64,000 nt of DNA from Gammaproteobacteria bacterium (GTDB taxonomy: Bacteria; Pseudomonadota; Gammaproteobacteria; Ga0077536): contig JAUIFX010000001.1 in assembly GCA_030429865.1 (NCBI GenBank), positions 2,190 to 66,189 of the forward strand, written 5' to 3'. Below, piece by piece: positions 20,311 through 38,129 of this stretch. The notes beneath the pieces were generated by a model. The model was not told where the DNA came from. It made no database searches and saw only the letters and a list, made by a program, of their open reading frames with translations. The number at the start of each line of letters is the position of its first letter. Within the stretch, counting starts at the first letter, position 1. Both the position numbers and the translations under genes were made by a program.

Positions 20311-20416
20311 TTGTTTTATTTGATACATCGCGTATCGTAAATCATCCTGCGCGAGCCTCGTGAAGGCGCACCACGCGCGCTGTGCGGCCACTGCCAACGA
20401 CAACCGGGGAGCGTCC

Positions 20417-20953: not shown

Positions 20954-22392
20954 GCGTGGCCGACGACAAAGACATCTTCCGTAAGGAAGCCCTCGACCAG
21001 CTGAGCTCGCCCGAACAGCTCGAGCAACTGCTCGAGGTGACCACCCGCAAGGCCTGGGTCAGCCTCTACACCATTGCCGGTGCGCTCGTCGCGATTCTCC
21101 TGTGGAGCGTGTTCGGCCAGATTCCGATCACGGTCGACGGCTCCGGCATCTTCGTCTACCCGAGACGGGTCGTGTCGTTCCAGTCGCCGGCGCCGGGACA
21201 GGTCGTGAGCATCGACGTCAACGTCGGTGATTTCGTCGACAAGGGCGACATCATCGGCACCCTCAACCAGCCCGACCTCGCGCAGGAACTCGAACAGGAA
21301 CGCGTGCGCCTGGCCGAAGCACGCGCCCAGGTACTGCTCAAGGGCGATGCCCTCGAACAGCGCCTGGCGCTCGAACGCGAATCGATCGTGCGCAAGCGCG
21401 AGCTGCTCGCGCAGCGCATCGAGTCGCTGCAGCGGATCTCCGAGGCGCAGAAGAAGCGCAATGCGGGCTACCTCGCGCAGCAGAGCAAGAACCTCGCCGA
21501 GGCGCGCAGCACCCAGCAGAAGCTCGGCCGCGCGCTGGAGGAACGTTTCGAGAGCTACGAGCGCCTGCGCGCCGAAGGGCTCTCCTCCGACGACAGCGTG
21601 CTCGCCGCACGCCAGCGCTACATGGACAACCAGGTGCAGCGCTCCGAGCTCGACCTGCGCGCCCAGGAACTCGAACTGCGCCGACTGGAGAACGAGCAGG
21701 CCTACCAGCAATCGCTAGACCGCATCGAGGAGTTCCGCACCCAGCTGCAGGATCTCGAGATCCGCGAGCGCGAGCTGGACCAGCAGGCGCTGGAGACCAG
21801 CGCCAGCGCGAAGCAGCGTATCCAGGAGATCGAACGCAACATCGCGCGCCTCGAAAGCCAGCTCGCGACGCGCAGCCAGATCGTCAGCGAACATGCCGGC
21901 CGCATCCTCGAGATCACGACCGGTCCCGGCCAGATCGTCAATGCCGGCCAGCGCATCGGCTCGATCGAGACCGAGGATGCCGCGGGTGAGCTGATGGGCG
22001 TGGCCTTCTTCGCCGTCGGCGACGGCAAGAAACTGGCCGCCGACGGCGTGCTGCGCCTCACCCCGACGACGGTGGAACGCGAACGCTACGGCAGCATCGT
22101 CGCCACCATCACGAGCGTCTCGGCCTTCCCGGTCACGGCGGATGCCATCAGCTCGATGATCGGCAACGCCGAGGTCGCCCAGGAAATCAGCCAGGGCCGC
22201 AGCGTCATCCAGGTCGTCGCCCGCCTGCACGAGGACGCGGACGCCCATACCGGCTACGAATGGACCTCCGGCAAGGGTCCGCCCGGACCGCTCACCGCCG
22301 GCACCACGGCCAGCGCGCGCGCGACGGTCGAATACCGCCGCCCGATCACGTTCGTCATCCCGATCCTGCGCAGGTGGACCGGCGTTGGCTGA
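20950..22392 (+). CDS. HlyD-family secretion (membrane fusion) protein, NHLM-bacteriocin-system type
   Basis: N-terminal TM (VSLYTIAGALVAILLWSVF), long coiled-coil (LAQELEQERVRLAEARAQ...), C-terminal beta domain. Coupled to flanking genes. Confidence 0.8.
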   Translation: MSVADDKDIFRKEALDQLSSPEQLEQLLEVTTRKAWVSLYTIAGALVAILLWSVFGQIPITVDGSGIFVYPRRVVSFQSPAPGQVVSIDVNVGDFVDKGDIIGTLNQPDLAQELEQERVRLAEARAQVLLKGDALEQRLALERESIVRKRELLAQRIESLQRISEAQKKRNAGYLAQQSKNLAEARSTQQKLGRALEERFESYERLRAEGLSSDDSVLAARQRYMDNQVQRSELDLRAQELELRRLENEQAYQQSLDRIEEFRTQLQDLEIRERELDQQALETSASAKQRIQEIERNIARLESQLATRSQIVSEHAGRILEITTGPGQIVNAGQRIGSIETEDAAGELMGVAFFAVGDGKKLAADGVLRLTPTTVERERYGSIVATITSVSAFPVTADAISSMIGNAEVAQEISQGRSVIQVVARLHEDADAHTGYEWTSGKGPPGPLTAGTTASARATVEYRRPITFVIPILRRWTGVG

Positions 22393-24637: not shown

Positions 24638-27551
24638 CGCGCGCACGATCACCATTCCGCGCGCGGAGCTGCGCCGCCTCGGTGCGCGCAAGATCCGCAT
24701 TCTCGGACATCACCCGCTGGTCCTCGACGATCCGTCGCGCATGTGGATCATCGCCGCAGGCGAGGTTTCGGTGATGACTTCCCACGTCGATCGCGGCCTG
24801 CCGGTCGGCCTGCGCCAGCTGGTCTTCGAGGCCGGTGTCGGCACGCCGCTGTTCCCCGTCTCCGACGGACGCAGCGAGGATGCCGAACGGCTCATCGTGA
24901 CCTCCACTGCCGAGGTCACCTTCTACGAAGCGCCGCTGCGCGCGGCGCGCGAGCTGCTCGCACTGATCGGGCTGTCGCTGCGCGAGGCGATCGACGACTG
25001 GACCAACAAGTTGTCGCGTTTCGCCGCCCGCGAGGAAGTGTTTGCCGGCGCCGACCGCTTTCCGCACGAGGGCAAGTTCGGACTCGCTGACGGCATGCTG
25101 GTCTCGGTCAGCCCGAACCAGGTCGCCTGGCTGCAGATCGAGAGCGGCGACCTGAACGCGTTCGGCGATCCGGAACTCGCCGTCGGCACGCTGCCGTTCT
25201 ACATGCCGGTGGGCGGCGAGATCTGGTTCCAGGCCGCCGACGAAACGCGCGTGCGCGTCAGCGACGAACTCGCGAATGCCTCCGACCTCGACCTCGTGCG
25301 TGGCCTGGCGCTGTTCAATTCGCTCCTGCAACGCCGCCTGCGCCAGTTCGAGCGCGCCGCCCAGGAAGCCGAGCGCGAACGGCTCGAACGCTCGGCACAA
25401 GTCGAATCACGCATCTTCGACGGCACGCTCGAGAAACTCGCCGGCGTGCTCAACCGGCGCGAAACCGTGCCGCAGCGCGAAAGCCTGCTCCTGACCGCCG
25501 CGACCATCGTCGGCAACGACCTTGGTGTTGCGATCGCGCCGCCCGCGCGCTCGGAGGATCCGCGGCGCATGAAGGATCCCGTCGAAGCCATCGCCCGCGC
25601 TTCGCGCCTGCGCCACCGTACCGTGATCCTGGCCGGCCGCTGGTGGGAGAACGACAACGGGCCGCTGCTCGCCTACCTCGAGGACGACGACATCCCGGTC
25701 GCGCTGGTGCGCGACCAGTGGCACGGCTACCAGATGACCGATCCGCGACACGGCGTGGCCGTGCCGGTGACACCCGACATCGCCCTCTCCCTCAAGCCCA
25801 AGGCGGTCATGTTCTACCCGCGCCTGCCCGAGAGCGTGCGTACCGCCTGGGCCGTGCCGCGCTTCGCCATGCGCGGCCGCATGTGGGACATGATCTTCGT
25901 CGCCCTGCTGTCGCTGACCATCACCGGCATCGGCATGCTGGTGCCGCAGGCGACCGCGCTGATCATGGACAACGCGATCCCCGATGCCAATCGCCGCCTG
26001 CTCGCCGAGCTCGGCGCCGGACTGGCCATGGCGGCCTTCGGCGCCGCCCTGTTCGGCATCGCCCAGGGGATCCTCAGTATCCGGCTCGGCATCCTCTCCG
26101 ACAGCGTCAGCCAGTCGGCCGTGTGGGATCGCCTGCTCAGCCTGCGCCTGCCGGTGTTCCGGCGCTTCTCCAGCGGCGACCTGCTCGACCGCGCGATGTC
26201 GGTCAGCGCGGTCAACCAGGAGATCAACGGCCAGGCGATGCGCACCATCCTGACCAGCGGTACCGCCCTGCTCAACCTCGGCCTGCTCTACTACTACAGC
26301 AGCAAGCTCGCCTGGATGGTCGCCGGCATCGGCATCACGATAGTCATCTTCACGCTCGCGGCCGGCTATCTGGCGCGACGCCACTACCGCCGCCTGATGG
26401 AACTGCAGGGGCCGTTCTTCGGTTTCGTCGTCGAGCTCGTCAACGCGGTCAGCAAGATCCGCATCGCCGGCGCGCAGCGGCGCGCTTTCGCGCGCTGGGC
26501 CGATCGCTACGTCGAGCAGCTGCACCTGATTCTCAAGGCGCAGAGCATCGAGGACTACGTGTCGGTGTTCAACCTGCTGATCCCCCTGGTCAGCGCCATG
26601 TTCCTGTTCTGGATGGGCGTGGAGATGCTCAACGCCGAGGGCGAGCAGCGCCTCAGCGTGGGCGTCTTCCTCGCCTTCAACACGGCCATGGGCACGTTCC
26701 TCGGCGGCGCCACGACGCTGTCCATCATGGGACTCGAATTCCTCGACACCATGGCCAAGGCGGCGCGCGTCAAACCGCTGCTGGTGGCACAGAGCGAGAT
26801 CTCCGACGATCTCCGCGACCCCGGCCGCCTGAGCGGTCAGATCGAGTTCAAGGACGTCCATTTCCGCTACGGCGAGGACGGCCCGCCGGTGCTCCGGGGC
26901 GTCAGCTTCCGCGTCATGCCCGAACAGTTCGTCGCCTTCGTCGGCCCCTCGGGCAGCGGCAAGTCGACGATCATCCGGCTCCTGCTCGGCTTCGAGGAGG
27001 CCGAGGCCGGGGTCGTCGCCTACGACGACCAGGACCTGACCGGGCTCGACATCACCGCCGTCCGGCGCCAGCTCGGCGTCGTGCTGCAGACCGCGCGTAT
27101 CAACTCGGCCTCGATCTTCGACAACATCGGCGGCGGCGCCGAGATCACGCTAGACGAAGCCTGGGAGGCGGCCGAGGACGCGGGCTTTGCCGACGATGTG
27201 CGCGAGATGCCGATGGAAATGCACACCGTGATCAGCGAGGGCGGCACCAACCTCTCCGGCGGCCAGCGTCAGCGCCTGCTGATCGCCCGCGCGCTGGTGC
27301 GCAACCCACGCATCCTCGTTTTCGACGAGGCCACCAGCGCGCTCGACAACAAGACCCAGGCGACCGTCACCGAAGCGCTCGACCGACGCAAGGTCACGCG
27401 CCTGGTCATCGCCCACCGCCTGAGCACGATCCGCAACGCCGACCGCATCTTCGTGCTGGCCCAGGGACGCATCGCCGAATCCGGCACCTTCGACGAACTC
27501 GTCGCCAACGGCGGCATCTTCGCCTCCATGATGGCGCGCCAGATCGTGTAA
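24630..27551 (+). CDS. Second ABC transporter (permease plus ATPase) with N-terminal cNMP-binding-like regulatory domain (NHPM-type)
   Basis: 973 aa; Walker A GPSGSGKST, LSGGQRQR, ILVFDEATSALD; ~350-aa N-terminal non-transporter domain. ATGA-type overlap with the upstream ABC gene. Confidence 0.85.
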   Translation: MTDARTITIPRAELRRLGARKIRILGHHPLVLDDPSRMWIIAAGEVSVMTSHVDRGLPVGLRQLVFEAGVGTPLFPVSDGRSEDAERLIVTSTAEVTFYEAPLRAARELLALIGLSLREAIDDWTNKLSRFAAREEVFAGADRFPHEGKFGLADGMLVSVSPNQVAWLQIESGDLNAFGDPELAVGTLPFYMPVGGEIWFQAADETRVRVSDELANASDLDLVRGLALFNSLLQRRLRQFERAAQEAERERLERSAQVESRIFDGTLEKLAGVLNRRETVPQRESLLLTAATIVGNDLGVAIAPPARSEDPRRMKDPVEAIARASRLRHRTVILAGRWWENDNGPLLAYLEDDDIPVALVRDQWHGYQMTDPRHGVAVPVTPDIALSLKPKAVMFYPRLPESVRTAWAVPRFAMRGRMWDMIFVALLSLTITGIGMLVPQATALIMDNAIPDANRRLLAELGAGLAMAAFGAALFGIAQGILSIRLGILSDSVSQSAVWDRLLSLRLPVFRRFSSGDLLDRAMSVSAVNQEINGQAMRTILTSGTALLNLGLLYYYSSKLAWMVAGIGITIVIFTLAAGYLARRHYRRLMELQGPFFGFVVELVNAVSKIRIAGAQRRAFARWADRYVEQLHLILKAQSIEDYVSVFNLLIPLVSAMFLFWMGVEMLNAEGEQRLSVGVFLAFNTAMGTFLGGATTLSIMGLEFLDTMAKAARVKPLLVAQSEISDDLRDPGRLSGQIEFKDVHFRYGEDGPPVLRGVSFRVMPEQFVAFVGPSGSGKSTIIRLLLGFEEAEAGVVAYDDQDLTGLDITAVRRQLGVVLQTARINSASIFDNIGGGAEITLDEAWEAAEDAGFADDVREMPMEMHTVISEGGTNLSGGQRQRLLIARALVRNPRILVFDEATSALDNKTQATVTEALDRRKVTRLVIAHRLSTIRNADRIFVLAQGRIAESGTFDELVANGGIFASMMARQIV

Positions 27552-27716: not shown

Positions 27717-30053
27717 ATGCAGCAGCCGCGGCCATTCCGTCCCCGAGCCCCGCGCCACGCCGCCGGCGCGCGCCTGCTGGCGCTCGCCGGCAGCACCCTG
27801 CTGCTCGCCGCCTGCAGCACCCGCGTGCCGCACCCGCTGCTCGACGAGGCGACCGAACGGCAGGCGACGACCATCGAGCTGTCACAGCCGCCGGCCGTCG
27901 ACGGCGCACGGGGCACGCGCGCGTCGGCCGTGACGCCGGCCGCGGACGACCCGGTCGCGGCCCCCAACGGGAGCTCGGCGAACCAGCAGCCCGCGGACAC
28001 ACCGGCCGGCACCGACACGGTTGCCGAAAGCCCCCGTCCTGCGCCGGCCGGCGCAGCGCAATCCGCCGTGGACGCACCGGTGCCGGAAGCCGCCGCCGGC
28101 GCCGCGAGCCCGCCGCCGCAGCTGCCCATCGGCATTGCCGACGTGCGCAGCCAGGCCATCGGCAACAATCTCGAGATCAAGACCGAGCTCGTCCGCCCCG
28201 CACTGCTGCGCGAGGATCGCCGCGAGGCCGAGGCACGCTTTCTGCCGACCGCGTTCGCCCGCTACACCTATTCCGCGTTCGACGAGCCGGGCGTCGCACC
28301 GACGCGTAATCCCAACGGGTCGACCACCGACGACGCCGAGCTCGGCATCGTCGTGCCGCTGCAGACCGGCGGCAGCGCGCGCGTCAGCGTACCGATCACA
28401 CGCACCGACTTCGGCGTCCCCGGCATCGAGAACGTGCACGACGCGGCGACCACTTTCTCGCTCAGCCAGCCGCTGCTGCGCGATGCCGGCCGTCACGTGA
28501 ATATCGCACCGATCACCGTCGCGCGGCTGCGCGAGCGCCAGCAGGACGCACAAACCAAGCTCGCCATTCTCAACGTCCTGGCGGGGGCGGATCGCTTCTA
28601 CTGGAATCTCTATGCCGCCTCGCGTGCGGTCGAGGTCCGCCTGCAGCAGTACGAACGCGCCAAGGAACAGGAGCGCCAGGCCGTGCGCCTCGCCGAGGAA
28701 GGCGTGGTGCCGGCGATCGAAGTGGTCCGCGCGCGCTCGGGCGTCGCGCGGCGCGTCGAAGACATCATCCGCGCCGAGAACACCCGCCGCCAGGTCGAGC
28801 GCGAGATCAAGCGCGCCATGAACCGGCCCGACCTGCCGGTCACCGGTGCCACCGCGCTACTCGTGACCACGCCTCCCGACCCGGTCGAGATCGTGATCGA
28901 CCGGCCCGCGGCGCTGGCCAGCGCGCTGGACAACCGCATGGAGCTGCTCAACCTCGAACTGCAGCTCGCCGTCGATGCGCTCTCGGTCGACGTGGCGCGC
29001 AACCAGAAGCTGCCCAGCCTCGCGCTCGACTACAGCTTCCGCTACCTCGGTGCGAGCAACGAGCTGGCCGAGGCCTTCGAGCAGATCGGCCGCACCGATT
29101 TCGCCAACCAGAGCATCGGGCTGACGCTGGAAGTGCCGCTCGGCAACCAGGCGCGCGTGGCGCGCTACAACCGCGCCGTACTGCAGCGAGCGCTGACCGC
29201 CGCGAACCGTGCCCAGCAGGCCCAGATCATCGAGCGCCAGGTGCTCGATACGGTCGACCAGCTCGACGAGGCGTGGCAACGCATCCTCGCAGCACGCGAG
29301 GAGACGCTGCTGGCCGCGCGCAACTTCCAGGCCGAACAGCGCCAGTTCCGCGCCGGCGTGCGCACCAGCACCGACGTCCTCATCGCCGCCGACTTTCTCG
29401 CCGATGCCCAGATCAAGGAACTCAATGCGCTCGCCGCCTACGAGATTGCCAAGATCGACCTCGCCTTCGTTACCGGCACCCTGCTCGGCAGCGGCAACGT
29501 CCAGCTTGCCTCGTTCGACGAAACCCACGACATCGACGAAGTCTCCGCCGCCGACATCGACAGCCTCGCCCCGATGCCGCCGAGTCCGCCGGTGTCGACC
29601 CAGGAGTCGATTGCACGCAAGCTCGAACGCCTCGACGTCAAGGCGCCTTCGGCGGCGTCGGTGCCGGGGATGCCCGACCTGCCGGCGCGTCCCGACGCGA
29701 TCCGGCCCGGTCTCAACCCGTCGGCCGTGCTGCCGGCGCGGCCCGCGCCATTGGCACCCGGCACCAGCAGCGACGCGGCCGGCGGCAATGTCGCGAGCGC
29801 CGGCGGCGACGCAGCCGGCGCCGTGGGGACAGCAGGCACCCCGGCCACCATCACCGTCGCCGCCGACGACACGCTGTGGTCACTCGCGCGCCGCTACCGC
29901 CCCGACGACAGCGTCAGCGTGCCGCACATGCTTGCCGCCATCATCGCGGCGAATCCGCGACAGTTCGGCGATGCCAACCCCGACCGGCTGGTGACCGGAA
30001 CCGTCCTGCGCGTCCCCGGCGAGGCGGACCTCGCGGCGACGGCACGCCCCTGA
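27717..30053 (+). CDS. TolC-like outer-membrane efflux lipoprotein with Pro-rich linker and C-terminal LysM-like domain
   Basis: Lipobox LLAAC-S; two outer-membrane-efflux-protein repeats; Pro/Ala-rich linker; C-terminal TITVAADDTLWSLARRYRPDD...LVTGTVLRVP resembling a LysM peptidoglycan-binding motif. Confidence 0.7.
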   Translation: MQQPRPFRPRAPRHAAGARLLALAGSTLLLAACSTRVPHPLLDEATERQATTIELSQPPAVDGARGTRASAVTPAADDPVAAPNGSSANQQPADTPAGTDTVAESPRPAPAGAAQSAVDAPVPEAAAGAASPPPQLPIGIADVRSQAIGNNLEIKTELVRPALLREDRREAEARFLPTAFARYTYSAFDEPGVAPTRNPNGSTTDDAELGIVVPLQTGGSARVSVPITRTDFGVPGIENVHDAATTFSLSQPLLRDAGRHVNIAPITVARLRERQQDAQTKLAILNVLAGADRFYWNLYAASRAVEVRLQQYERAKEQERQAVRLAEEGVVPAIEVVRARSGVARRVEDIIRAENTRRQVEREIKRAMNRPDLPVTGATALLVTTPPDPVEIVIDRPAALASALDNRMELLNLELQLAVDALSVDVARNQKLPSLALDYSFRYLGASNELAEAFEQIGRTDFANQSIGLTLEVPLGNQARVARYNRAVLQRALTAANRAQQAQIIERQVLDTVDQLDEAWQRILAAREETLLAARNFQAEQRQFRAGVRTSTDVLIAADFLADAQIKELNALAAYEIAKIDLAFVTGTLLGSGNVQLASFDETHDIDEVSAADIDSLAPMPPSPPVSTQESIARKLERLDVKAPSAASVPGMPDLPARPDAIRPGLNPSAVLPARPAPLAPGTSSDAAGGNVASAGGDAAGAVGTAGTPATITVAADDTLWSLARRYRPDDSVSVPHMLAAIIAANPRQFGDANPDRLVTGTVLRVPGEADLAATARP

Positions 30054-30269
30054 GGCCGGCGTGCCCCGACCCGGCGCGCTCCGGGGTCGTTGCAGGGCCG
30101 GCGCGCGGCCAGGTCGCCGCCCGGCGACCAGCGTCACCTCGGCAAGGAAACCCCCGTATACTCGCCAGCGTTCCCGTTGCCGCCCGCGGGGAAACGACAC
30201 CCGGCGTGGCGACCTGCGGCACGGCGCGGCGCGGCTGCGTGCGCCGTGCACCCGGGCGTTGACCTCGTC

Positions 30270-31610
30270 ATGAAAACCACCCACGCCTCGTCACGATCGA
30301 ACGGCGCCGCCTGGCTGCGCCCTTTCCGCAATGCCGGCATCCTGGCGCTGGGACGCGGCATGCAGGGCGTGCTGTCCCTAGCCTACGTCGCACTCGCTTC
30401 GCGCGCGCTGGGACCGGGTGCCTTCGGTGTCCTCGTGCTGGTGCACAGTACGGTGCTGGTGGCGGCGCAACTGGTGCGCTTCCAGTCCTGGCAGGCCGTG
30501 CTCAAGTACGGCGCCCCCGCGCTGCTGGCCGCCGATCACGCGGCACTGCATCGCGTTCTGCTCTTCGCGCTCGGGCTCGACGTCGTCAGCGGCGCCCTGG
30601 CCGGCGTGGTGCTGGTCCACGCCATGCCCACCCTCGCCGCCTTCGTCGGGATCCCGGATGCGGTCGTGCCGCTGGCGACGCTCTACGCGATGAGCGTCGC
30701 GTTCGTCATTCTCGGTGCCGCGCCGCTGGGCGTGCTGCGGCTGCTCGACCGCCACGATCTCATTTCCTGGCAAACCATCGTCGAGCCCGTCGTGCGCTGT
30801 GCGGGCGCGCTGTTCCTGTTCGCCAGCGATGGCCTGCTGGCCGGGTTCCTGATGGTGTGGTTCGTGGCAACGGCACTTGGCAAGGGCGCGCTGTTCGTCG
30901 CCGCTTCGAAGGCGCTCGCGGCGCGCGGACTCAGCCTGCGCCACGCCGCGCTCGACCGCCGCTGTCTCGCGCCGGCACCCGGCATCTGGCGATTCAGCGC
31001 AGGCACCAACCTGAGTTCGATGCTCAACCTCAACGACACGCAGATCGGGCCGCTGCTCGCCGGCAACCTGCTCGGCGCCGCGGACGCCGGCCTCTACCGC
31101 ATCGCGCAGCAGGTCGCCAACGTGGTTTCGAAGCCGGTGCACAAACTGCTGGTGCCGGCAATCTATACCGACATGTCACAGCTCACCGCCGCCGGCGACC
31201 GCCGTACACGCCGCGAGGTCGTCGCCCGCTCCGGGCTGGTGGCAGGGCTCGCCGGCATCGCCATTTTCGCCCTGCTGGCCGCGTTCGGCGCCGATCTGCT
31301 GACCCTGGTCTTCGGCGAGGCCTACCGCGCAGCAACCGGACCGATGCTGTGGCTGTCGTTCGCGGGCGTCCTCGCCACGTTCGCTTTCCCCCTCGCGCCC
31401 CTGCTGATGTCAGGCGGCAAGGTCCGCCACGTCGTGATCATCCGCCTCGCCGCGCTGGTCGCGTACCTCATCGCGTTCTACCTGCTGGTTCCGGTCCACG
31501 CGCTGCTCGGCGCAGGCCTCGCGGTCAACCTGCATGCCCTGTTGACGGTTGCGGGCATGGCCTGGTGCGCGCGCGAGTTGCTGGGTCGCGATGACGTGCA
31601 GCAGCGGTGA
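30270..31610 (+). CDS. Polysaccharide biosynthesis protein / Wzx-MurJ-like flippase (MOP superfamily)
   Basis: ~447 aa polytopic membrane protein with typical flippase topology. Internal ATG chosen because the upstream part of the track ORF is R-rich. Confidence 0.6.
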   Translation: MKTTHASSRSNGAAWLRPFRNAGILALGRGMQGVLSLAYVALASRALGPGAFGVLVLVHSTVLVAAQLVRFQSWQAVLKYGAPALLAADHAALHRVLLFALGLDVVSGALAGVVLVHAMPTLAAFVGIPDAVVPLATLYAMSVAFVILGAAPLGVLRLLDRHDLISWQTIVEPVVRCAGALFLFASDGLLAGFLMVWFVATALGKGALFVAASKALAARGLSLRHAALDRRCLAPAPGIWRFSAGTNLSSMLNLNDTQIGPLLAGNLLGAADAGLYRIAQQVANVVSKPVHKLLVPAIYTDMSQLTAAGDRRTRREVVARSGLVAGLAGIAIFALLAAFGADLLTLVFGEAYRAATGPMLWLSFAGVLATFAFPLAPLLMSGGKVRHVVIIRLAALVAYLIAFYLLVPVHALLGAGLAVNLHALLTVAGMAWCARELLGRDDVQQR

Positions 31611-31613
31611 TGC

Positions 31614-31637
31614 CCGTGGACACCGCTTGGTCCACGG
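31614..31637 (+). terminator. Perfect 8-bp inverted repeat hairpin immediately after the flippase stop
   Basis: ccgtggac-accgcttg-gtccacgg, 4 nt after TGA (31608-10). No U-tract, so could equally be a protein-binding palindrome. Confidence 0.3.
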
Positions 31638-31769
31638 CACTACACTCGATGCCCGGTAAGGAACCAGTCTGCCCCGTTCGCGGTCAGAGGGGCTTTCGGC
31701 AGCCGGACGCCGCGCGGGACGACCGTCCCACGTATCCCCGCCGGCCAGGTGCGCGGGCAATCATGTGAC

Positions 31770-34286
31770 ATGAAACGATTTTTCTCGCATCGCCGCCGCC
31801 GCGCCGGCAGCGGCACGTCCGAAGACGATCCACGCCGGTTCCTCGATACCATCGTATTCCCGCCCACCCCCGGGGCGGCCCCATCGCCGCTGCCGCCGGT
31901 CCGGATTTTTCTCGGCACGGAAGCCGCGCACTACCGGGCCGAACGCGTGTTCCTGTGGTCGATCCTCGAACATCGCAACCCCGCACGGCGTTACGAAATC
32001 ATCCTGATGAAGGATCTGCCCGGTTTCGACCGCACGGCCTGGACGACCGGTTTCAGCAACTACCGCTTCGCCATCCCCTACCTCGCGGGCGGCGCGGGCC
32101 GCGCGATCTACAACGACGTCGACCAGATCTATCTCGCCGATCCCGGCGTGCTGTTCGACCACGACCTCGGCGACCACGGCTTTCTCGCCCTGTCGGGCGA
32201 GGACACCTCGGTGATGCTCATCGATTGCGCGCGCATGGACGACGCATGGCCGCTCGCGCGTGCGCGCAGCGCGCCGAAGCGGGAACTGCTGGCCCACGCC
32301 GCCGCCCTTCGCGGCGACTTGCCGGCCGAGTGGAACGCTCGCGACGAGGAGTTCCGCGCGGGAAACAGCAAGCTGCTGCATTTCACGGCGCTGCACCTGC
32401 AACCCTGGACCCCGGAGCCCGATCGCTTCGCCTACCGTGCGCATCCGCACGGCGAACGCTGGTACGCGCTCGAGCGGGCCGCGGACGCGGCGGGCTTCAC
32501 GGTATTCGACCGCGCGCACCCGAGCCGGCGTTACCGCGAGCTGATCGCGTGCTGCAGCGATCTCCACGCCCATGGCAGCGGCACGCCCGGGCAGAGCGCC
32601 GGGCAGACGTTCCCCGGACAGGTCCTCCCACGCCATGTCGGCAGCGTCGCCCGCCTGGTCGAAGCAGCCAATGCGCGGACCGTCCTCGACTACGGCGCCG
32701 GCAAGGCCGGCGCCTACCAGTCACTGCCCGGAGAGCCGCCGGAATCGCCGGTCAAGGCCATGCCGGCATGGGGCGCGGACCTGCGCGTGACCGTCTACGA
32801 CCCGGCCTATCCGCCTTACAGTGAGCTGCCCGAGGGCCGCTTCGACGGCGTCATCTGTACCGACGTCCTCGAGCACATCGCCGAGGAAGACATCCCGTGG
32901 ATCCTGCAGGAACTGTTCTCCCATGCCACGGCGTTCGTCTATGCCTCGGTCGCCTGCTACCCGGCGAAGAAGGTCCTGCCCAACGGCGAGAATGCGCACG
33001 TCTGCCAGAAGCCGCCGGCCTGGTGGGATGCGCAGTTCCGTGCCGCCGCGCGCGCACACCCGCACGTGCATTGGGAACTGTCGATCCGCAAGAAGAACTG
33101 GCGCGGCAAGAAAGTCCGGCTGAGCCGCGTCGGCGGTCACTGGCTGGACCGCCCGCGCGTCTGGGTGCTCGGCGATGACAAGCCCGGGAATACCAACCAG
33201 GCCATCGCCCTCGCCGCGGCGCTGGGCTATGACTACGACCTGCGCGTGCTCGAGTACGGTCCGCTCGCGCACCTGCACAATCGCCTGCTCGGGGCGAGCC
33301 TGGCGGGCCTGACGCAGCGCTGCGCGGCGAGCCTCGCACCGCCGTGGCCGGAACTCGTCGTCGCTTGCGGCCGCCGCACCGCGCCCGTGGCACGCTGGAT
33401 TGCGAAGCGCTCCCGCGGCGCTACCCGCGTGGTCCAACTCGGCCGCAAGGGCGGTGACACGGCACGTCCGTTCGATGTCGTCGTGACACCGGCCCACTGC
33501 CACCTTGCCGGCGACCCTCGACGCATCGAGACCCTGTTGCCGCTGACGCCGCTGGCCATTGCCAAGGGCGCCACCACGCCTGCAGGGGGCGCGAGCCCCC
33601 GCACCGTGGTGCTGCTCGGCGGCGCCACCCGCCGCTACCGTTTCGACGCCGATGTGATCGACGACCTGGCACGCCGACTACGCGCCGATCATGCCGCACA
33701 CGGCGGCGAGCTGTGGGTCCTGACCAGTGCGCGGACCGGCGCCAAGGCGCTCGCGCAACTCTCCGCCGCACTCGATGACGACACCCGCATCTTCGACCCG
33801 GATACGCTCGGCAGCCGCTACTGGGAGACCCTCGTCGCGGCTGACCGCATCATCGTCAGCGGCGAGAGCGAGTCCTTGCTCGCCGATGCGGTCGCGACGG
33901 GACACCCGGTGTTCATCCACGCACTGCCGCCGCGACCCCAGTCCTTGCTGCTGCGGGCCGGTGCGCAGCTCGACCGCTGGGCGCGCCGGCGCCCGACCAA
34001 CCGGCGCGCCACCACGCGCCCGCAGCGCGGGCTCGAATATCTCTGCGCACGGCTGATCGAAACGGGCCTGGCACGGCCGCCGCGCAACCTCGAAGAGTTG
34101 CACCAGGCCTTGTACGCGCGCGGCGTCGCACAACCGTTCGGCGCCGCGCCGACGCCCCTGGACGCAGCCCATCCGCTGCGGTTCAGCGCGACAGAGGAAA
34201 CAATAGAAGTCGCCCGGCGTGTGCGCGAGGCGCTCGGCTTCGGCGTCTGGACCTCGCCCGCGGAGCCGCCCGGTCAGGACGTCTGA
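31770..34286 (+). CDS. Three-domain fusion: GT8-like glycosyltransferase (DxD) plus class I SAM-dependent methyltransferase plus ELM1/DUF1022-like C-terminal domain
   Basis: N-terminal IYNDVDQIYLADP (GT8 DxD). Middle VLDYGAGKAG...FDGVICTDVLEHI (SAM methyltransferase motifs I and post-I). C-terminal VWVLGDDKPGNTNQAIALAAALGY resembling the ELM1 family. Single 838-aa ORF. Confidence 0.55.
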   Translation: MKRFFSHRRRRAGSGTSEDDPRRFLDTIVFPPTPGAAPSPLPPVRIFLGTEAAHYRAERVFLWSILEHRNPARRYEIILMKDLPGFDRTAWTTGFSNYRFAIPYLAGGAGRAIYNDVDQIYLADPGVLFDHDLGDHGFLALSGEDTSVMLIDCARMDDAWPLARARSAPKRELLAHAAALRGDLPAEWNARDEEFRAGNSKLLHFTALHLQPWTPEPDRFAYRAHPHGERWYALERAADAAGFTVFDRAHPSRRYRELIACCSDLHAHGSGTPGQSAGQTFPGQVLPRHVGSVARLVEAANARTVLDYGAGKAGAYQSLPGEPPESPVKAMPAWGADLRVTVYDPAYPPYSELPEGRFDGVICTDVLEHIAEEDIPWILQELFSHATAFVYASVACYPAKKVLPNGENAHVCQKPPAWWDAQFRAAARAHPHVHWELSIRKKNWRGKKVRLSRVGGHWLDRPRVWVLGDDKPGNTNQAIALAAALGYDYDLRVLEYGPLAHLHNRLLGASLAGLTQRCAASLAPPWPELVVACGRRTAPVARWIAKRSRGATRVVQLGRKGGDTARPFDVVVTPAHCHLAGDPRRIETLLPLTPLAIAKGATTPAGGASPRTVVLLGGATRRYRFDADVIDDLARRLRADHAAHGGELWVLTSARTGAKALAQLSAALDDDTRIFDPDTLGSRYWETLVAADRIIVSGESESLLADAVATGHPVFIHALPPRPQSLLLRAGAQLDRWARRRPTNRRATTRPQRGLEYLCARLIETGLARPPRNLEELHQALYARGVAQPFGAAPTPLDAAHPLRFSATEETIEVARRVREALGFGVWTSPAEPPGQDV

Positions 34287-34302
34287 GGCCCGTTCCAGGT
34301 TC

Positions 34303-35913
34303 TCAAGGTGCGGCGCCGCCTTTGCGCGCCAGCAGGTGGTCGCCGAGTCGGTGGGCGAGCGCGACTATCGTCAGCGTGGGATTCGCCCAGCTCGCGGTCG
34401 GGAATACCGAGGAGCCGGCGACGAAGAGGTTCGCGTAGCCGTGCACGCGGCAGTCGCGATCGACCACGCCCTGCTCTGGCGCCGCGCTCATGCGCGTCGT
34501 GCCCATGTGGTGGTAACCGCCGATCGCATGGTTGCCGACGGTCGCATCGACCGGCCACGCCGTGCCCGCTTCGCGCAGCCACGCCGCGGGTTCGAGATGG
34601 CCGACGCCACGCGCCGCGAGGCGTGCAGCGAGACGCTCGACCATGATCGCGACGGTACGCTTGTCGAGCTCGCACAGGCGCCATTCGAGCGCCGCGCGCG
34701 GCATGCCCAGCGCATCCCGCTCGCTGGCGAGACGCACCCGGCTGGATGGATTGGGTGCCTGCTCGGCACGCACCATCACGTTGACACGCCGCATGCCGCG
34801 CGCGAAACGCACGCGCTCGACCCGGCGCCGCAAGCGGTGCTGGATGAATCGCCGCAGGTCGCGGTAGCGGTGCCACAAGGCCCGGTTGGCCCGGGTCGGC
34901 GCGAGCTGGTGCTTGAGGTCGTTGTACAGCCGCTTGTGCAGCGCCACGCCGCGCGCGCTGTCGCGCTGCAGCTTGAACGTGAACGCGGTATTGAGGATGC
35001 CGGCCTCGCGCTGCAACGCGGGGGCCGGTAACAGTACCGACGCGATCTCGTTGCCATCGGCGCCGTGACGGCGCTGGAACGCCGCCCACAGCGCGAAGCC
35101 GGCGCGCGGCTCGAGCCGCCCGGCGCGCGCGTGCGGATGCTCCATGAAACAACGCCCGACCTGGTCATGACGGTTACCGACGCCGGCCGTCTCGACGTCG
35201 TCGGAGGCGAGCAGCAGGCGCGGGTTCTCGATACCGCCGGCGGCGAGCACGTAGTGCCGCGCGACGAGACGCGCGCGGCGTCCCTCCAGCGACGCCAACT
35301 CGAGGGCCTCGACCCGGTTCGCCGCGGCGCTGACGCGGATTCGGGTCACGTTCGCATGCAGCACGATGCGCACGTCGCCGGCGCCGAACAAGTCGTCCAT
35401 GCGCGCGGCATTGAATCGCTCGCGCTCGTTGTCGAAATGCCAGCAGCGCGTGACGAAATCGCCGTCGAGGCCGTTCTGTGCGGCGTTGTCGTCCCGCCAC
35501 CCGGATGCCGCGGCGGCGCTCTCCGGCAGTGCGAAATCGCGTGCTGCCTGCGCGTACCAGGGGTCGAGTTCGTCCAAGCTCAGCGGCCAGCCGCTCAGCG
35601 GGACCCAGGATCGGGGCTCGAGGTCGATGGCCTCGAAACGCGCGCAGCGCCCACCCCAGATGTTCGTCGTACCGCCGAGAAAACGCAGGCGGGCATCGAC
35701 CAGCGCGTAGTAGGGATCGCCGCAGTCCGGGCCGGCGGCGAGATCCTGCGTGGCCGCCTCGAAGTCGCGGCCGCCGCTCTCGACGACGCATACCTCGATG
35801 CCGTGCCCGGCCAGGTGCCGGGCGAGCGTGATACCGGCTGCGCCGCCGCCGACGATGGCGATGTCGCAGGCCAGCTCGGCGTTCTCGGGATAGTCGTTCA
35901 GATCGTGCAGCAT
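34303..35913 (-). CDS. GMC-family FAD-dependent oxidoreductase (choline dehydrogenase-like)
   Basis: DIAIVGGGAAGITLA (GxGxxG); C-terminal GMC signature ...HHMGTTRMSAAPEQGVVD...GYANLFVAGSSVFP. Confidence 0.8.
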   Translation of the reverse strand: MLHDLNDYPENAELACDIAIVGGGAAGITLARHLAGHGIEVCVVESGGRDFEAATQDLAAGPDCGDPYYALVDARLRFLGGTTNIWGGRCARFEAIDLEPRSWVPLSGWPLSLDELDPWYAQAARDFALPESAAAASGWRDDNAAQNGLDGDFVTRCWHFDNERERFNAARMDDLFGAGDVRIVLHANVTRIRVSAAANRVEALELASLEGRRARLVARHYVLAAGGIENPRLLLASDDVETAGVGNRHDQVGRCFMEHPHARAGRLEPRAGFALWAAFQRRHGADGNEIASVLLPAPALQREAGILNTAFTFKLQRDSARGVALHKRLYNDLKHQLAPTRANRALWHRYRDLRRFIQHRLRRRVERVRFARGMRRVNVMVRAEQAPNPSSRVRLASERDALGMPRAALEWRLCELDKRTVAIMVERLAARLAARGVGHLEPAAWLREAGTAWPVDATVGNHAIGGYHHMGTTRMSAAPEQGVVDRDCRVHGYANLFVAGSSVFPTASWANPTLTIVALAHRLGDHLLARKGGAAP

Positions 35914-36068: not shown

Positions 36069-36917
36069 ATGTCGAGCACGACGAGCAACACGGGAACCGA
36101 CCAGGCAACGTTCTGGAACGAGGAAGGCGGCCGCCGCTGGGTCGCGCACATCGACCAGCTCGAACGCATGCTGGCGGGCCTCAGCACGGTGCTGGTCGAT
36201 GCCGTCGGCGCGCAACCCGGCGAGCGCGTGCTCGACGTCGGCTGCGGCGGCGGCCCGACCAGCAACGCCTACGCGCGCGCCGTCGGCGATGCGGGCCGCG
36301 TGCTCGGCGTCGACATCTCGGCGGTGATTCTCGAAGTCGCGCGGCAACGTGCCCGGCACATCCCGAACCTCGAATTCGCGACTGCCGATGCCGCCACGCA
36401 CGCCTTCGAGCCGGCCAGCTTCGATGTCGTGACGTCACGCTTCGGTGTCATGTTCTTTCCCGATCCCCACGGCGCGTTCGGCAATATCCGCCGAGCCGTG
36501 CGCGCTGGCGGTCGCCTGTGCTTCATGTGCTGGCGCGGCATCGACGAAAACCCCTGGATGGGCGCCCCGGCGAAGGCCGCGTTCAGCGTCATTCCGCCGC
36601 CCGAGAAGCTACCGCCGGGCAGCCCGGGACCGTTCGCGTTCGCGGACCCGGCGCACGTGCGCGACATCCTCGCGAGCGCCGGTTTCGTCGACATCGAGCT
36701 GAGTCCCCACGAGCACCGCATCACGCTCGGCACGGTCGACGAGGCACTCGAATGGCTGACCAACATGGGACCGGCGGCAACACCGCTGGCCGAAGCCGGG
36801 CCGGACGCCCGCGCCGCCGCACGCGAGGCGATGCGCGAGCTGCTGGTCCGCCACGATACGCCGCAGGGCGTGACCCTGGACGGCGCAACCTGGCTGGTCC
36901 GCGCGCGGGTACCCTGA
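36069..36917 (+). CDS. Class I SAM-dependent methyltransferase
   Basis: VLDVGCGGGPTS (motif I), DVVTSRFGVMFF, GGRLCFMCW. Confidence 0.75.
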   Translation: MSSTTSNTGTDQATFWNEEGGRRWVAHIDQLERMLAGLSTVLVDAVGAQPGERVLDVGCGGGPTSNAYARAVGDAGRVLGVDISAVILEVARQRARHIPNLEFATADAATHAFEPASFDVVTSRFGVMFFPDPHGAFGNIRRAVRAGGRLCFMCWRGIDENPWMGAPAKAAFSVIPPPEKLPPGSPGPFAFADPAHVRDILASAGFVDIELSPHEHRITLGTVDEALEWLTNMGPAATPLAEAGPDARAAAREAMRELLVRHDTPQGVTLDGATWLVRARVP

Positions 36918-37673: not shown

Positions 37674-38129
37674 TCAGCGTGGGCGGACAGGCGCGAGCGC
37701 CTCGCCCAGGTGCGCGCCGAGCGCCGGCGCCTCGACGTGGGCGAGATCCTTGGCGACGCTCGCGACCACGCAGGCGGCGGTCCGCGTATCGAGCGCCTCG
37801 CGCAACTGACCAAGAAAGCGTGGCTCGGCGACGAGCACGAGTTCATCCATCTCGCCGGCGCCGCGGGCCCTGTCGAGACGCGCGCCGATCTCGCGCGCGA
37901 AGTCCGCGGCGATGCGCTCGTGCGGACTCTCGGCGCGGCTCATCGCGTGGCGTCCCTCGCCGCCGCTGTCGAACGCGCGCCCCGGCCGGTCGGCATCGAT
38001 CGCGCCGTCCTTGAGGCGGCCGCGCGGATTGTCGAACGTTTCGCGCAACTCGAGCGTCTTGCCGCCGTCCCGGACTGCCATGATGCGTGCGCCGACGCGA
38101 TCGGCGACGACTAACCACTTCTCGTGCAT
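37674..38129 (-). CDS. Host-attachment-protein family (PF10116-like) protein
   Basis: MHEKWLVVADRVGARIMAVRDG... resembles the conserved N-terminus of host attachment proteins. 151 aa. Confidence 0.45.
   Translation of the reverse strand: MHEKWLVVADRVGARIMAVRDGGKTLELRETFDNPRGRLKDGAIDADRPGRAFDSGGEGRHAMSRAESPHERIAADFAREIGARLDRARGAGEMDELVLVAEPRFLGQLREALDTRTAACVVASVAKDLAHVEAPALGAHLGEALAPVRPR

Follow-up and report, generated by a model that had tools for sequence, protein, structure and literature searches.

KdoT (A1S_2903) of Acinetobacter baumannii has been described as an 'ELM1-like' CMP-Kdo:Kdo2-lipid IVA KdoIII transferase, and in its SRRT motif the second arginine (R180) is required for activity while the first (R179) is dispensable (PMC12856342). 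GtrOC1 (PF06258) is a predicted LOS glycosyltransferase of the LOS outer-core locus (PMC4172580). Bacterial sphingolipids are thought to be widespread; a handful of their head-group enzymes are known, and according to a 2024 study no bacterial sphingolipid flippase or other transporter has been identified (PMC11087976). Glycosyltransferases of bacterial glycosphingolipids include Caulobacter Sgt1/Sgt2, the ceramide glucuronosyltransferase of Sphingobium/Zymomonas and the alpha-GalCer synthase of Bacteroides fragilis (PMC13318209, PMC9393093).

In the window (the whole 64-kb stretch of DNA that was analysed), one gene joins a GT8-like glycosyltransferase domain, a methyltransferase-fold domain and an ELM1-type domain, and it lies next to a MOP/Wzx-like flippase gene. 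With odds slightly better than even (roughly 55%), we read this pair as a cytoplasmic glycolipid head-group synthase and its flippase, for which a sphingolipid would be the most likely lipid anchor. The features of the three-domain gene are as follows:

31770..34286, + strand: three-domain gene, 838 aa plus TGA stop
31887..32534, + strand: N-terminal GT-A, GT8-like glycosyltransferase domain (aa ~40-255), from AlphaFold and Foldseek
32112..32126, + strand: DxD metal/nucleotide-sugar motif N115-D116-V-D118-Q119, from invariant positions in the alignment
32373..32408, + strand: LLH204FTALH209LQPW213, by motif position the putative counterpart of the GT8 C-terminal His/'HxxGxxKPW' region
32637..33134, + strand: class-I (Rossmann-like) SAM methyltransferase fold (aa ~290-455), predicted fold
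32682..32711, + strand: SAM-binding motif I, V305-LDYGAGKAG-314, sequence motif
32787-32801, + strand: acidic residue D344 (VTVYD) at the end of beta-2, sequence motif
33183..34283, + strand: C-terminal ELM1/GtrOC1-type GT-B domain (Pfam match aa 472-730) with a conserved extension to about aa 830
33723..33740, + strand: T652-S-A-R655-T-G, putative equivalent of the KdoT SRRT motif (A. baumannii)

Integrity, spread and glycosyltransferase domains of the fusion

The three-domain ORF runs on the + strand from GTG 31749 or ATG 31770 to 34286, and the start at ATG 31770 (MKRFF...), which gives 838 aa, matches the gene calls in close homologues. The distribution of GC over codon positions resembles that of coding DNA: GC content was higher at the third codon position than at the other two in all 15 sliding windows (15/15), and therefore no frame break is present in the ORF. 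Colinear copies of the gene were found at 94%, 93%, 85% and 84% identity, and the ORF is uninterrupted in all full-length loci, whose assemblies are independent of each other and comprise chromosome-level MAGs as well as the genome of an isolate. Throughout the family, a single ORF of 663–998 aa was present in 87 of 87 loci, the single short one ending at a contig edge. The concern of the first-pass annotation that an assembly or frameshift artefact had joined separate genes, for which the split versions in other lineages might have spoken, is thus effectively refuted by these copies, assemblies and the continuous GC3 periodicity, and the fusion is real and ancient.

Separate genes do occur among the orthologues, as had been raised for checking: in 27 loci a GT8 plus methyltransferase gene is split from ELM1, with the break exactly at the domain boundary. 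An ELM1-type match lies 1–3 kb away on the same strand in 11 of the 27, two of these 11 being confirmed by Pfam as ELM1 genes, which ties the modules together functionally. No fusion of reversed order (ELM1 N-terminal to GT8-methyltransferase) was found among the odd-length matches, which include P0326, carrying TPR repeats, and P0334, a distant GT8 plus methyltransferase relative that lies in a radical-SAM locus and carries a PqqD-like peptide-recognition domain as a fusion.

At least 485 species genomes, among them that of the isolate Nitrococcus mobilis Nb-231, encode a relative, and there are 276 clusters at 50% identity; NCBI already uses the name 'ELM1/GtrOC1 family putative glycosyltransferase' for the protein. 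The three-domain architecture is therefore not rare. It is common in databases, and, in line with the first-pass annotation, the searchable literature yielded no characterised enzyme with a GT8-MT-ELM1 architecture; searches on the fusion, on ELM1 with serine palmitoyltransferase and on Nitrospira sphingolipids returned nothing relevant.

NCBIfam gave no usable match to the protein, and an Rfam scan of 29900-34500 had no matches, to riboswitches or to any other RNA family. Searching the PDB with a profile of a 38-sequence alignment was uninformative (best E 0.07, ribosomal protein uS2), so fold prediction was needed. The protein lacks a transmembrane segment (peak 19-residue hydropathy 1.16) and is accordingly cytoplasmic or peripheral.

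The GT8-like domain is the best-conserved part of the protein, with 55–67% identity to relatives. The AlphaFold model of aa 30–265 has a pLDDT of 93.5, and its 50 best Foldseek matches in the PDB were mostly GT8 enzymes plus related GT-A enzymes (UGGT, WbbM); GlyE, 3tzt, LgtC, LARGE1, UGGT, glycogenin and WbbM were at the top, with E values down to 1.4e-10 and probability 1.00 at TM scores of only 0.5–0.6. The Pfam model Glyco_transf_8 (PF01501) did not match the window protein even at E<=1, and matched 18 of 38 relatives weakly (best E 6.7e-5). Since this threshold is not reached, the window protein is GT8-like rather than a demonstrable GT8 member, with a fold closest to solved GT8 structures and with both the DxD and the downstream histidines in place. 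Residues N115, D116, D118 and Q119 are invariant across the 38 sequences, as are H204, H209, Q211 and P212, and the DxD motif is retained in nearly all of 84 loci. By motif position rather than by superposition, the H204/H209 region would be equivalent to the Mn-binding histidine of GT8 enzymes.

The ELM1 domain (PF06258, GT-B clan CL0113) was matched at aa 472–730 with an E value of 2.4e-47 and 162 bits (cut-off 27), over model positions 1–265 of 304, and the match is present in all 38 of 38 relatives; a conserved block, RPQxGLEYLCARL, lies at the C-terminus. The sequence T-S-A-R655-T-G is located about 182 residues into the domain, and the SRRT of KdoT occupies residues 178–181. Among the 38 sequences R655 is invariant and T652, S653 and T656 are at least 90% conserved. 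Judged by motif and position rather than by an alignment with KdoT, the two may be equivalent, and the KdoT precedent together with the invariant R655 makes it likely that the ELM1 domain is active here. The sole characterised ELM1-type enzyme acts on Kdo2-lipid A, which is a point against the reading as a head-group synthase.

The three-domain composition proposed at first pass holds, by the PF06258 match for ELM1 and by predicted folds and motifs for the other two domains; in the suggested Pfam check itself, ELM1 lies above its cut-off and GT8 and methyltransferase below their curated thresholds. That the latter two fall below Pfam thresholds also counts against the reading as a head-group synthase.

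The methyltransferase-fold domain

The middle domain has a predicted seven-stranded Rossmann-like methyltransferase fold and carries the two class-I signatures, namely motif I (hhD/ExGxGxG; VLDYGAGKAG, 305–314) and the acidic residue of beta-2 (VTVYD344). Several observations would fit a domain that is also here a structural linker, that is, a pseudo-methyltransferase within a dual glycosyltransferase. The Methyltransf_23 match of the window protein is sub-threshold (20.6 bits against a cut-off of 27), the Foldseek matches are weak with TM below 0.5, and a loop or hairpin is modelled in place of the helix that usually follows motif I. Moreover, only the clade of the window protein and the 27 split two-domain proteins have an intact motif I and conserve the acidic residue of beta-2; about 80 fused relatives show motif I in degenerate form or have lost it, and nevertheless keep the domain. 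We consider this linker reading rather unlikely, as the window and split clades, at only 50–55% identity, retain the G-x-G-x-x-G loop together with the beta-2 Asp and the DVLEH block. The identity of the methyltransferase domain to that of the window is 52% in the split clade vs 27% in other fused members, the domain evolving about half as fast in these two clades as elsewhere.

With motif I and the beta-2 Asp conserved and with this difference in identity, it is probable that the middle domain functions as a SAM-dependent methyltransferase in the window clade. Methylation, as far as the motifs indicate, is not a property of the whole enzyme family, since motif I is degenerate or deleted in most members. 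The proposal that the enzyme both transfers and methylates a sugar is therefore plausible for the window clade, where the SAM motifs are intact and conserved, and does not extend family-wide.

Flippase pairing and the loci of relatives

The region upstream of the three-domain gene contains the following features:

30270..31610, + strand: MOP/Wzx-like flippase gene, 446 aa from ATG 30270 (longest ORF from TTG 30090)
31617..31646, + strand: sigma-70-like promoter match TGGACA-18-TACACT, within the 160 bp that separate the flippase gene from the three-domain gene

The upstream gene was rightly called a flippase at first pass: it matches PF01943 with 46.9 bits (cut-off 28.2) and PF13440 with 30.1 bits (cut-off 23), has a weak NCBIfam match to 'MOP flippase family', and encodes a polytopic membrane protein with multiple hydrophobic segments. 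Its true start, set by comparison with the 89%-identical gene call in locus L005, is probably 30270, giving 446 aa. The putative promoter is one site in the gap against 0.2 expected by chance, and L005 and L007 preserve its two hexamers amid variable flanking bases. No terminator was found by a scan between the two genes. An 8-bp inverted repeat (31614-31637) considered as an operator candidate was dropped, as it is not conserved in L005 or L007.

The flippase gene lies about 100–170 bp upstream of the enzyme gene, on the same strand, in every window-clade locus examined. The two form a conserved module in otherwise unrelated flanks (window, L005, L007, L087/88, L001, L004, L167), and these loci span 94–55% identity. 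Such persistence bears on the ribosomal-peptide cluster of YcaO-TfuA type upstream, whose product, exported by the adjacent C39-ABC/HlyD/OEP system, the enzyme might glycosylate or methylate. In the window as in L005, the gene follows the export genes directly and has their orientation, and the PqqD-like domain of P0334 would suit a peptide substrate. However, L001, L004 and L167 keep the flippase–enzyme pair without the peptide cluster, the cluster is missing from all other family contexts, and a lipid flippase as partner would make no sense for a peptide; a role in peptide modification is thus highly improbable, and the link to the cluster was rejected.

MOP/Wzx flippases classically carry undecaprenyl-pyrophosphate-linked sugars, which counts against the head-group reading. 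As a rival reading, the pair would be a minimal Wzx-dependent unit, in which a methylated di- or oligosaccharide would be built on undecaprenyl phosphate (for O-antigen, exopolysaccharide or protein glycosylation) and flipped by Wzx. The neighbour does belong to the Polysacc_synt/MOP family, its relatives are labelled 'O-antigen/teichoic acid export' or 'oligosaccharide flippase' in databases, and the structural matches of the enzyme include bifunctional polymerases with a GT8 module, for example WbbM. Against this, an initiating phosphoglycosyltransferase, Wzy, a chain-length regulator and sugar-nucleotide genes are absent within 10 kb in about six independent window-clade contexts, and the Pfam-annotated neighbours in the window, L001, L004, L005 and L167 include no initiating phosphoglycosyltransferase, Wzy polymerase or sugar-nucleotide genes of the kind that mark a Wzx/Wzy cluster. 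The flippase subfamily is also small (71 matches), with relatives beside serine palmitoyltransferase (Spt) operons. We regard such a unit as quite unlikely.

Among non-window fused loci, Spt is encoded within the examined flanks in 46 of 131, and of the 91 loci with enough flank, 32 have it on the same strand no more than 600 bp upstream, although Nitrospirales account for about 30 of the Spt-adjacent loci, which are mutually non-independent. The nearest outgroup of the enzyme (P0012/P0013/P0019, 45–48% identity) shows the order FAAL-CerR-ACP-Spt-[enzyme], and in L168 the start codon of the enzyme overlaps the preceding stop codon within the Spt operon. The Spt of L006 scored 642.8 bits against the NCBIfam serine palmitoyltransferase equivalog (threshold 500); the labels 'CerR', 'ACP', 'FAAL' and 'bCerS-like' were assigned by Pfam content, gene order and tblastn, a curated model being passed by Spt only. 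In addition, the three flippase relatives examined (P0148, P0164 and P0135; 35–44% identity) all adjoin genes of sphingolipid type, either Spt/ACP/CerR/FAAL or a sphingolipid-modification-type set of DAGK_cat, CDP-OH_P_transf, FA_hydroxylase and LptFG.

Because the closest relatives of both enzyme and flippase outside the clade sit in Spt operons, a sphingolipid is the most likely anchor. It is suggested by association only, since tblastn (E<1e-8) for Spt, ACP, CerR and a bCerS-like GNAT found none in the 64-kb window, and none within 10 kb in any window-clade locus. The CerR of Caulobacter is periplasmic (PMC11087976), which implies that a cytoplasmic glycosyltransferase must act on oxidised ceramide or that the order of the pathway differs.

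A lipopolysaccharide or generic glycan target, as first suggested, is not favoured by these neighbourhoods, which for the enzyme family and the flippase subfamily alike point to sphingolipid loci. In its specific form, the enzyme would extend and methylate the LPS/LOS core on lipid A by KdoT/GtrOC1-like and LgtC/WaaJ-like GT8 steps, with the flippase either unconnected to it or devoted to a different glycan. This would agree with KdoT, the sole characterised ELM1-like enzyme, attaching Kdo to Kdo2-lipid IVA, with GtrOC1 in an LOS outer-core locus, and with the LOS enzyme LgtC among the GT8 structural matches. Of 131 relatives, 37 also have LptF/G-like genes no further than 10 kb away, and one split-locus ELM1 protein has a weak WaaA-like region. 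However, core-lipid A is flipped by MsbA and not by a MOP flippase, the window is without lpx, waa and kds genes, the nearest-outgroup enzyme lies inside Spt operons, with the stop/start overlap in L168, and the flippase relatives adjoin sphingolipid-type genes in three of three cases. Taken together, an LPS/LOS core substrate appears unlikely.

Proposed mechanism and comparison with known systems

The following scheme for the head-group synthase and its flippase is our inference as regards sugar donors, reaction order, methyl acceptor, flippase substrate and the anchor lipid used by this organism. The enzyme would be soluble, cytoplasmic and peripheral to the membrane, and would build a sugar head group on a membrane lipid; the most likely lipid is a sphingolipid, either ceramide or the 3-keto precursor of ceramide. 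With a divalent metal at its DxD and His residues, the GT8-like GT-A domain would act as a retaining transferase and add an alpha-linked hexose from a UDP-sugar, and the ELM1/KdoT-type GT-B domain would attach a second sugar with inversion. The second donor may be an acidic, CMP-activated sugar, since in KdoT the donor carboxylate is contacted by an Arg whose putative counterpart, R655, is invariant. The middle domain, probably active in the window clade, would then methylate the product, and the adjacent MOP/Wzx-like flippase would translocate the completed glycolipid across the inner membrane to its outer face.

A more specific version is tentative, possible but short of probable: a dedicated glycosphingolipid system might furnish ceramide, or oxidised ceramide, with an O-methylated, LPS-core-like head group made of an alpha-hexose and an acidic sugar resembling Kdo. 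The MOP subfamily would then be the missing bacterial sphingolipid flippase, and sphingolipid operons in Nitrospirota, Binatia, Planctomycetota and many Proteobacteria might rely on the methyltransferase-decayed enzymes as their main head-group synthase. The enzyme family, fused to or beside Spt operons in several phyla, is a concrete candidate for a head-group enzyme, and the co-located MOP flippase subfamily is a candidate sphingolipid transporter. With this family, GT-B enzymes of the KdoT/ELM1 type, characterised only recently, would also reach beyond LOS synthesis, and, with the methyltransferase intact in two clades and a pseudo-enzyme in the rest, the family offers a natural experiment in domain decay. 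Were the sphingolipid link wrong, the gene would, on its sequence, still appear a clean case of an uncharacterised trifunctional glycolipid or glycan enzyme.

Compared with KdoT and GtrOC1, the C-terminal domain shares the Pfam family, a GT-B fold without a transmembrane helix and, as proposed here, a lipid-anchored acceptor at the membrane, and it has a putative counterpart of the S-x-R-T motif of KdoT, with R655, at the place of the functionally important second Arg, invariant. In contrast, KdoT is a stand-alone protein of ~35 kDa in an LOS locus rather than the C-terminal third of an 838-aa fusion, and the first Arg of SRRT is replaced by Ala in the window protein. The retaining GT8 enzymes (LgtC 1g9r, GlyE 5gvv, glycogenin, 3tzt) share the GT-A fold, the DxD and the downstream conserved His region, and are the best structural matches of the window domain (E to 1.4e-10), yet at only 12–17% sequence identity and TM 0.5–0.6.

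WbbM (6u4b, the Klebsiella galactan I polymerase) and LARGE1 (7ui6) likewise combine a GT8-type module with a second, unrelated glycosyltransferase module in one polypeptide, and the two modules make a defined disaccharide linkage pattern. Here, the partner module is an ELM1-type GT-B instead of DUF4422 or GT49, a methyltransferase-fold domain lies between the modules, and polymerising activity is not indicated. O-polysaccharide terminators of WbdD type also have a SAM methyltransferase domain physically coupled to glycan assembly, which methylates the sugar product; WbdD differs in serving ABC-transporter-dependent polymannan synthesis and in not being fused between two glycosyltransferase domains, and the class-I fold is its only apparent homology to our middle domain.

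The known glycosphingolipid glycosyltransferases have the role proposed here, the transfer of sugars onto ceramide, and the same linkage to sphingolipid synthesis genes. The characterised enzymes are GT4-type and single-domain; none is known to have the GT8-MT-ELM1 architecture, and none has been reported beside a MOP flippase. The logic of the flippase–enzyme pair is that of the YpfP-LtaA operon of Staphylococcus aureus, in which a cytoplasmic glycosyltransferase makes a diglycosyl lipid that the product of the adjacent gene flips; the likeness is one of analogy only, as that operon uses the GT28 and MFS transporter families and a diacylglycerol anchor.

The flippase and three-domain gene pair

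In the window, whose G+C content of about 70% makes spurious long ORFs frequent on both strands, the ORF at 31749/31770-34286 (+) is a genuine gene. Its codon-position G+C is 0.73/0.54/0.85, and in each of the 15 sliding windows GC3 exceeds the G+C of the other two positions, so the frame is unbroken; hundreds of full-length homologues match its protein, with E-values down to zero. The start is placed at ATG 31770 because close homologues begin with MKR, giving a protein of 838 aa that ends at TGA. The gene directly upstream is a Polysacc_synt/MOP flippase, as the first-pass annotation had claimed; by comparison with an 89%-identical gene call it starts at 30270 and encodes 446 aa, leaving a spacing of 160 bp. 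This gap also contains, at 31614-31646, an 8-bp perfect inverted repeat (CCGTGGAC/GTCCACGG) overlapped by a promoter-like TGGACA-18-TACACT; the relatives' loci L005 and L007 keep the hexamers but not the repeat's right arm.

Upstream of the pair is a thioamide-type RiPP cluster with type-I export genes; unrelated metabolic genes follow downstream.

Features of the window around the gene pair (window coordinates)
9964-30053: thioamide-type RiPP cluster with its own export system, comprising the next nine entries
9964-10338: NHLP/Frankia-peptide-like precursor candidate, sub-threshold
12169-14727: FAD/Trp-halogenase-like gene (FAD_binding_4)
14633-16195: TfuA
15934-17358: YcaO
20360-20953: cNMP-binding regulator
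20950-22392: HlyD
22385-24637: C39-peptidase ABC exporter
24630-27551: second ABC protein
27717-30053: outer-membrane efflux protein with LysM domain
30270-31610 (+): MOP/Wzx-like flippase
31770-34286 (+): three-domain gene
36069-36917 and 37674-38129 (-): stand-alone class-I methyltransferase and Host_attach/baeRF-family-12 gene

Since the ORFs of TfuA and YcaO share about 260 bp, at least one of their starts is miscalled. The stand-alone methyltransferase, 1.8 kb downstream of the fusion, is canonical (Methyltransf_11, E 4e-21); it and the Host_attach gene occur in L005 too and are absent from more distant loci of the window clade, that is, the loci with flippase and three-domain gene (window, L005, L007, L087/88, L001, L004 and L167).

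The probability that a peptide of the RiPP cluster is the target of the enzyme is negligible: the RiPP neighbourhood is common only to near-identical relatives (L005), and the flanks are wholly different in L001 (62% identity), L004 (55%), L167 (56%) and L087/88 (84%). These same loci keep the flippase, same-stranded and 100-170 bp upstream of the three-domain gene, so the conserved unit is a two-gene module, and throughout the window clade the MOP flippase is always paired with the three-domain gene.

Domain architecture in fused and split forms

The first-pass annotation read the protein as a fusion of GT8-like glycosyltransferase, methyltransferase (MT) and ELM1 domains. All three calls are right, two of them as '-like' assignments, ELM1 being the only domain confirmed by Pfam (PF06258, aa 472-730, 162 bits). 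In the window protein the Pfam methyltransferase match is below threshold (20.6 vs 27 bits) and Pfam GT8 gives no match at all, and a profile search of PDB sequences returned nothing useful; the two N-terminal regions were therefore structure-predicted separately from 110-sequence alignments. Compared by Foldseek with solved structures, the predicted fold of aa 30-265 (pLDDT 93.5) has a top 50 made up mostly of GT8 retaining transferases, alongside related GT-A enzymes, including GlyE, 3tzt, LgtC, LARGE1, UGGT, glycogenin and WbbM, with E-values to 1.4e-10 but TM-scores of just 0.5-0.6 and identities of 12-17%. Weak Pfam Glyco_transf_8 matches occur in 18 of 38 relatives, and the motifs N115-D-V-D-Q119 and H204/H209-x-Q-P-W vary little or not at all. 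No hydrophobic segment of the protein is long enough to span a membrane. The protein is soluble and combines two glycosyltransferase folds with intact catalytic motifs and, in the window clade, an intact SAM-binding fold.

The fusion is genuine, and misassembly as its source has a probability close to nil. The ORF is uninterrupted in 87/87 loci (the sole short copy runs off a contig end), relatives turn up in at least 485 species when one genome per species is scanned, and an exhaustive search with the GT8+MT half gives 276 clusters (50% identity) at E<=1e-30; the fusion is thus neither an assembly artefact nor rare. Carriers in the species scan include Nitrospirales, Binatia, Gamma- and Alphaproteobacteria, Planctomycetota and Myxococcales, among them the isolate Nitrococcus mobilis Nb-231, and the nearest relative is a 'Pseudomonadota bacterium' MAG (93% identity). 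Nearly all of the best 120 protein matches are 700-900 aa long and cover 93-99% of the query, some labelled by NCBI as 'ELM1/GtrOC1 family putative glycosyltransferase'.

Orthologues also occur as separate genes, a check that had been proposed with the fusion. At 27 metagenome loci a two-domain GT8+MT protein has its stop codon at the end of the MT domain (about window residue 453); in 11 of the 27 an ELM1-part match lies on the same strand, 1.5-3 kb upstream or about 1 kb downstream, and Pfam confirms the ELM1 gene in both loci scanned (L138 and L162). Such neighbouring separate genes are Rosetta-stone evidence that the modules work together.

The earlier reading that the enzyme both transfers and methylates is reasonable for the window gene, whose SAM motifs are intact, but does not hold family-wide. 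In some 80 fused relatives, motif I (which aligns with window aa 299-317) is degenerate, as in LLHYGLGSS or LLYCHFGQL, or deleted (L006, L009, L021-L079 and others; deleted in L024 and L050), while their glycosyltransferase motifs are almost invariant. Only the window clade and 27/27 split proteins still have motif I, the beta-2 Asp and the DVLEH block intact; together these two sets group as a single clade in the neighbour-joining tree built on residues 40-450. MT-domain identity to the window is 52% in this split/intact group vs 27% in the other fused proteins, with GT8 identity about equal (57% vs 59%). Fused members retain the middle domain despite loss of motif I; in most of them it is apparently a pseudo-methyltransferase kept as a structural spacer.

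Several relatives depart from this layout. At split-type L138 (6684-9065), a 793-aa protein has ELM1 as its N-terminal half and a C-terminal half that weakly matches the N-terminal domain of the Kdo transferase WaaA (Glycos_transf_N, E 6e-4); its neighbours include a bCerS-like GNAT, a cytidylyltransferase-like gene and a histidine phosphatase. As well, P0334 (L173 8001-10502), a distant GT8+MT relative (40% identity), has an N-terminal PqqD-like peptide-recognition domain and is surrounded by three radical-SAM genes, a second methyltransferase-like gene of 454 aa and a GT29-like gene, and there the module may have taken on a peptide or another non-lipid substrate. In the small fused clade L044, L051, L060 and L081, the ELM1 GG, S-x-R-T and ESES motifs are lost and the GT8 motifs kept, which suggests a decayed C-terminal transferase.

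Sphingolipid genes around relatives of enzyme and flippase

In the nearest outgroup (P0012, P0013 and P0019; 45-48% identity), the operon order is FAAL, CerR-like reductase, ACP, serine palmitoyltransferase (Spt) and, last, the three-domain gene, after which come a 2OG-oxygenase-like and a GT4 gene. The counterpart of this set in Caulobacter is the sphingolipid gene set spt, acp, cerR, acps and bcerS (PMC9393093). At L168 the Spt stop codon and the three-domain gene overlap, and the Spt of L006 scores above the cut-off of the NCBIfam serine-palmitoyltransferase equivalog (642.8 vs 500 bits). Within the flanks (up to 10 kb) of 131 non-window fused loci, Spt is present in 46, with about 30 Spt-adjacent loci being Nitrospirales and hence not independent of one another; at least one sphingolipid marker is present in 53, a 2OG-like gene in 57 and LptF/G-like genes in 37. 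Spt lies at most 600 bp upstream on the same strand in 32 of the 91 loci with at least 3 kb of upstream flank. The linkage also occurs in Planctomycetota, several gammaproteobacterial lineages, Myxococcales and unclassified MAGs.

The 2OG-like gene (about 240 aa; L006 12640-13356, L003 13688-14410) has a faint 2OG-Fe(II) oxygenase match and lies directly downstream of the fused gene in many lineages, the window clade being without it; a GT4 or GT2 gene or a stand-alone ELM1 paralogue often follows. Many genomes have an LptF/LptG-like permease pair no more than 10 kb from the fused gene and Spt operon (L003 3967-6165; L006 1-1552), a pair that might serve as housekeeping LPS exporter or form a paralogous glycosphingolipid system.

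The flippase subfamily is small, with 71 matches in 5.8 billion proteins. All three relatives inspected (35-44% identity, on long contigs; L171 10001-15784, L172 10001-15823 and L170 1-12454) adjoin sphingolipid-type genes: one is directly upstream of FAAL-CerR-ACP-Spt-desaturase, another adjoins Spt-ACP-CerR-FAAL, and the third adjoins LptFG, a fatty-acid hydroxylase, DAGK_cat and CDP-alcohol phosphatidyltransferase, the latter two being the Pfam types of Caulobacter CpgB and CpgA (PMC9393093). Moreover, three Spt-linked or related enzyme loci have a flippase of about 30% identity 4.5-5.8 kb downstream. A 2024 study describes the bacterial sphingolipid flippase or transporter as not yet identified (PMC11087976), and this MOP subfamily is a candidate.

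Proposed function and known enzymes

The module is most likely a glycolipid synthase with its flippase, a general model to which we assign a probability of about 0.55. The enzyme would act at the cytoplasmic face on a membrane lipid, its GT8-like domain adding an alpha-linked hexose from a UDP-sugar in a metal-dependent reaction, its ELM1/KdoT-like domain adding a second sugar with inversion and its MT domain methylating the product, which the flippase would then carry across the inner membrane. Because relatives of both enzyme and flippase converge on Spt loci, the anchor is probably a sphingolipid, a part of the model that we hold more tentatively; against it, Spt is absent from the window and from within 10 kb in window-clade loci. 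MOP flippases usually carry undecaprenyl-linked glycans, a weak point of the proposed mechanism, and such a glycan as product of the pair is an unlikely reading; no initiating transferase, Wzy or sugar-nucleotide gene lies beside the module in the window-clade loci examined. Nearly on a par, and also improbable, is LPS core as target. A further weak point of the glycolipid model is that the acceptor of the ELM1-like Kdo transferase KdoT of Acinetobacter baumannii is lipid A (PMC12856342). In addition, Spt and bCerS are cytoplasmic and CerR periplasmic in the 2024 study (PMC11087976); with CerR periplasmic as in Caulobacter, a cytoplasmic acceptor would be the 3-keto intermediate.

The analysis adds a family-wide tie to sphingolipid operons, clade-specific methyltransferase survival and a candidate sphingolipid flippase, all directly testable. 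No paper tying the fusion, or ELM1 proteins, to Spt operons was found in the searchable literature, nor, in line with the first-pass annotation, any characterised counterpart of the GT8-like/MT/ELM1 architecture.

Bacterial ELM1-family proteins were long merely predicted glycosyltransferases (GtrOC1; PMC4172580), until December 2025, when in-vitro work identified the A. baumannii 'ELM1-like' A1S_2903 as KdoT (PMC12856342). In its conserved SRRT motif the second Arg, R180, is required and modelled facing the donor carboxylate, while the first, R179, is dispensable (PMC12856342). Equally far from its start, the window ELM1 domain carries T-S-A-R655-T-G as the putative counterpart, and R655 is invariant in the three-domain family; this conservation favours an active transferase and may point to an acidic sugar donor. 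The ceramide glycosyltransferases already known from bacteria, namely Sgt1/Sgt2, ceramide glucuronosyltransferase and the B. fragilis alpha-GalCer synthase, are single-domain and unrelated to the three-domain enzyme (PMC13318209). The protein is a predicted multi-domain glycosyltransferase and belongs to a large, database-visible and experimentally untouched family.
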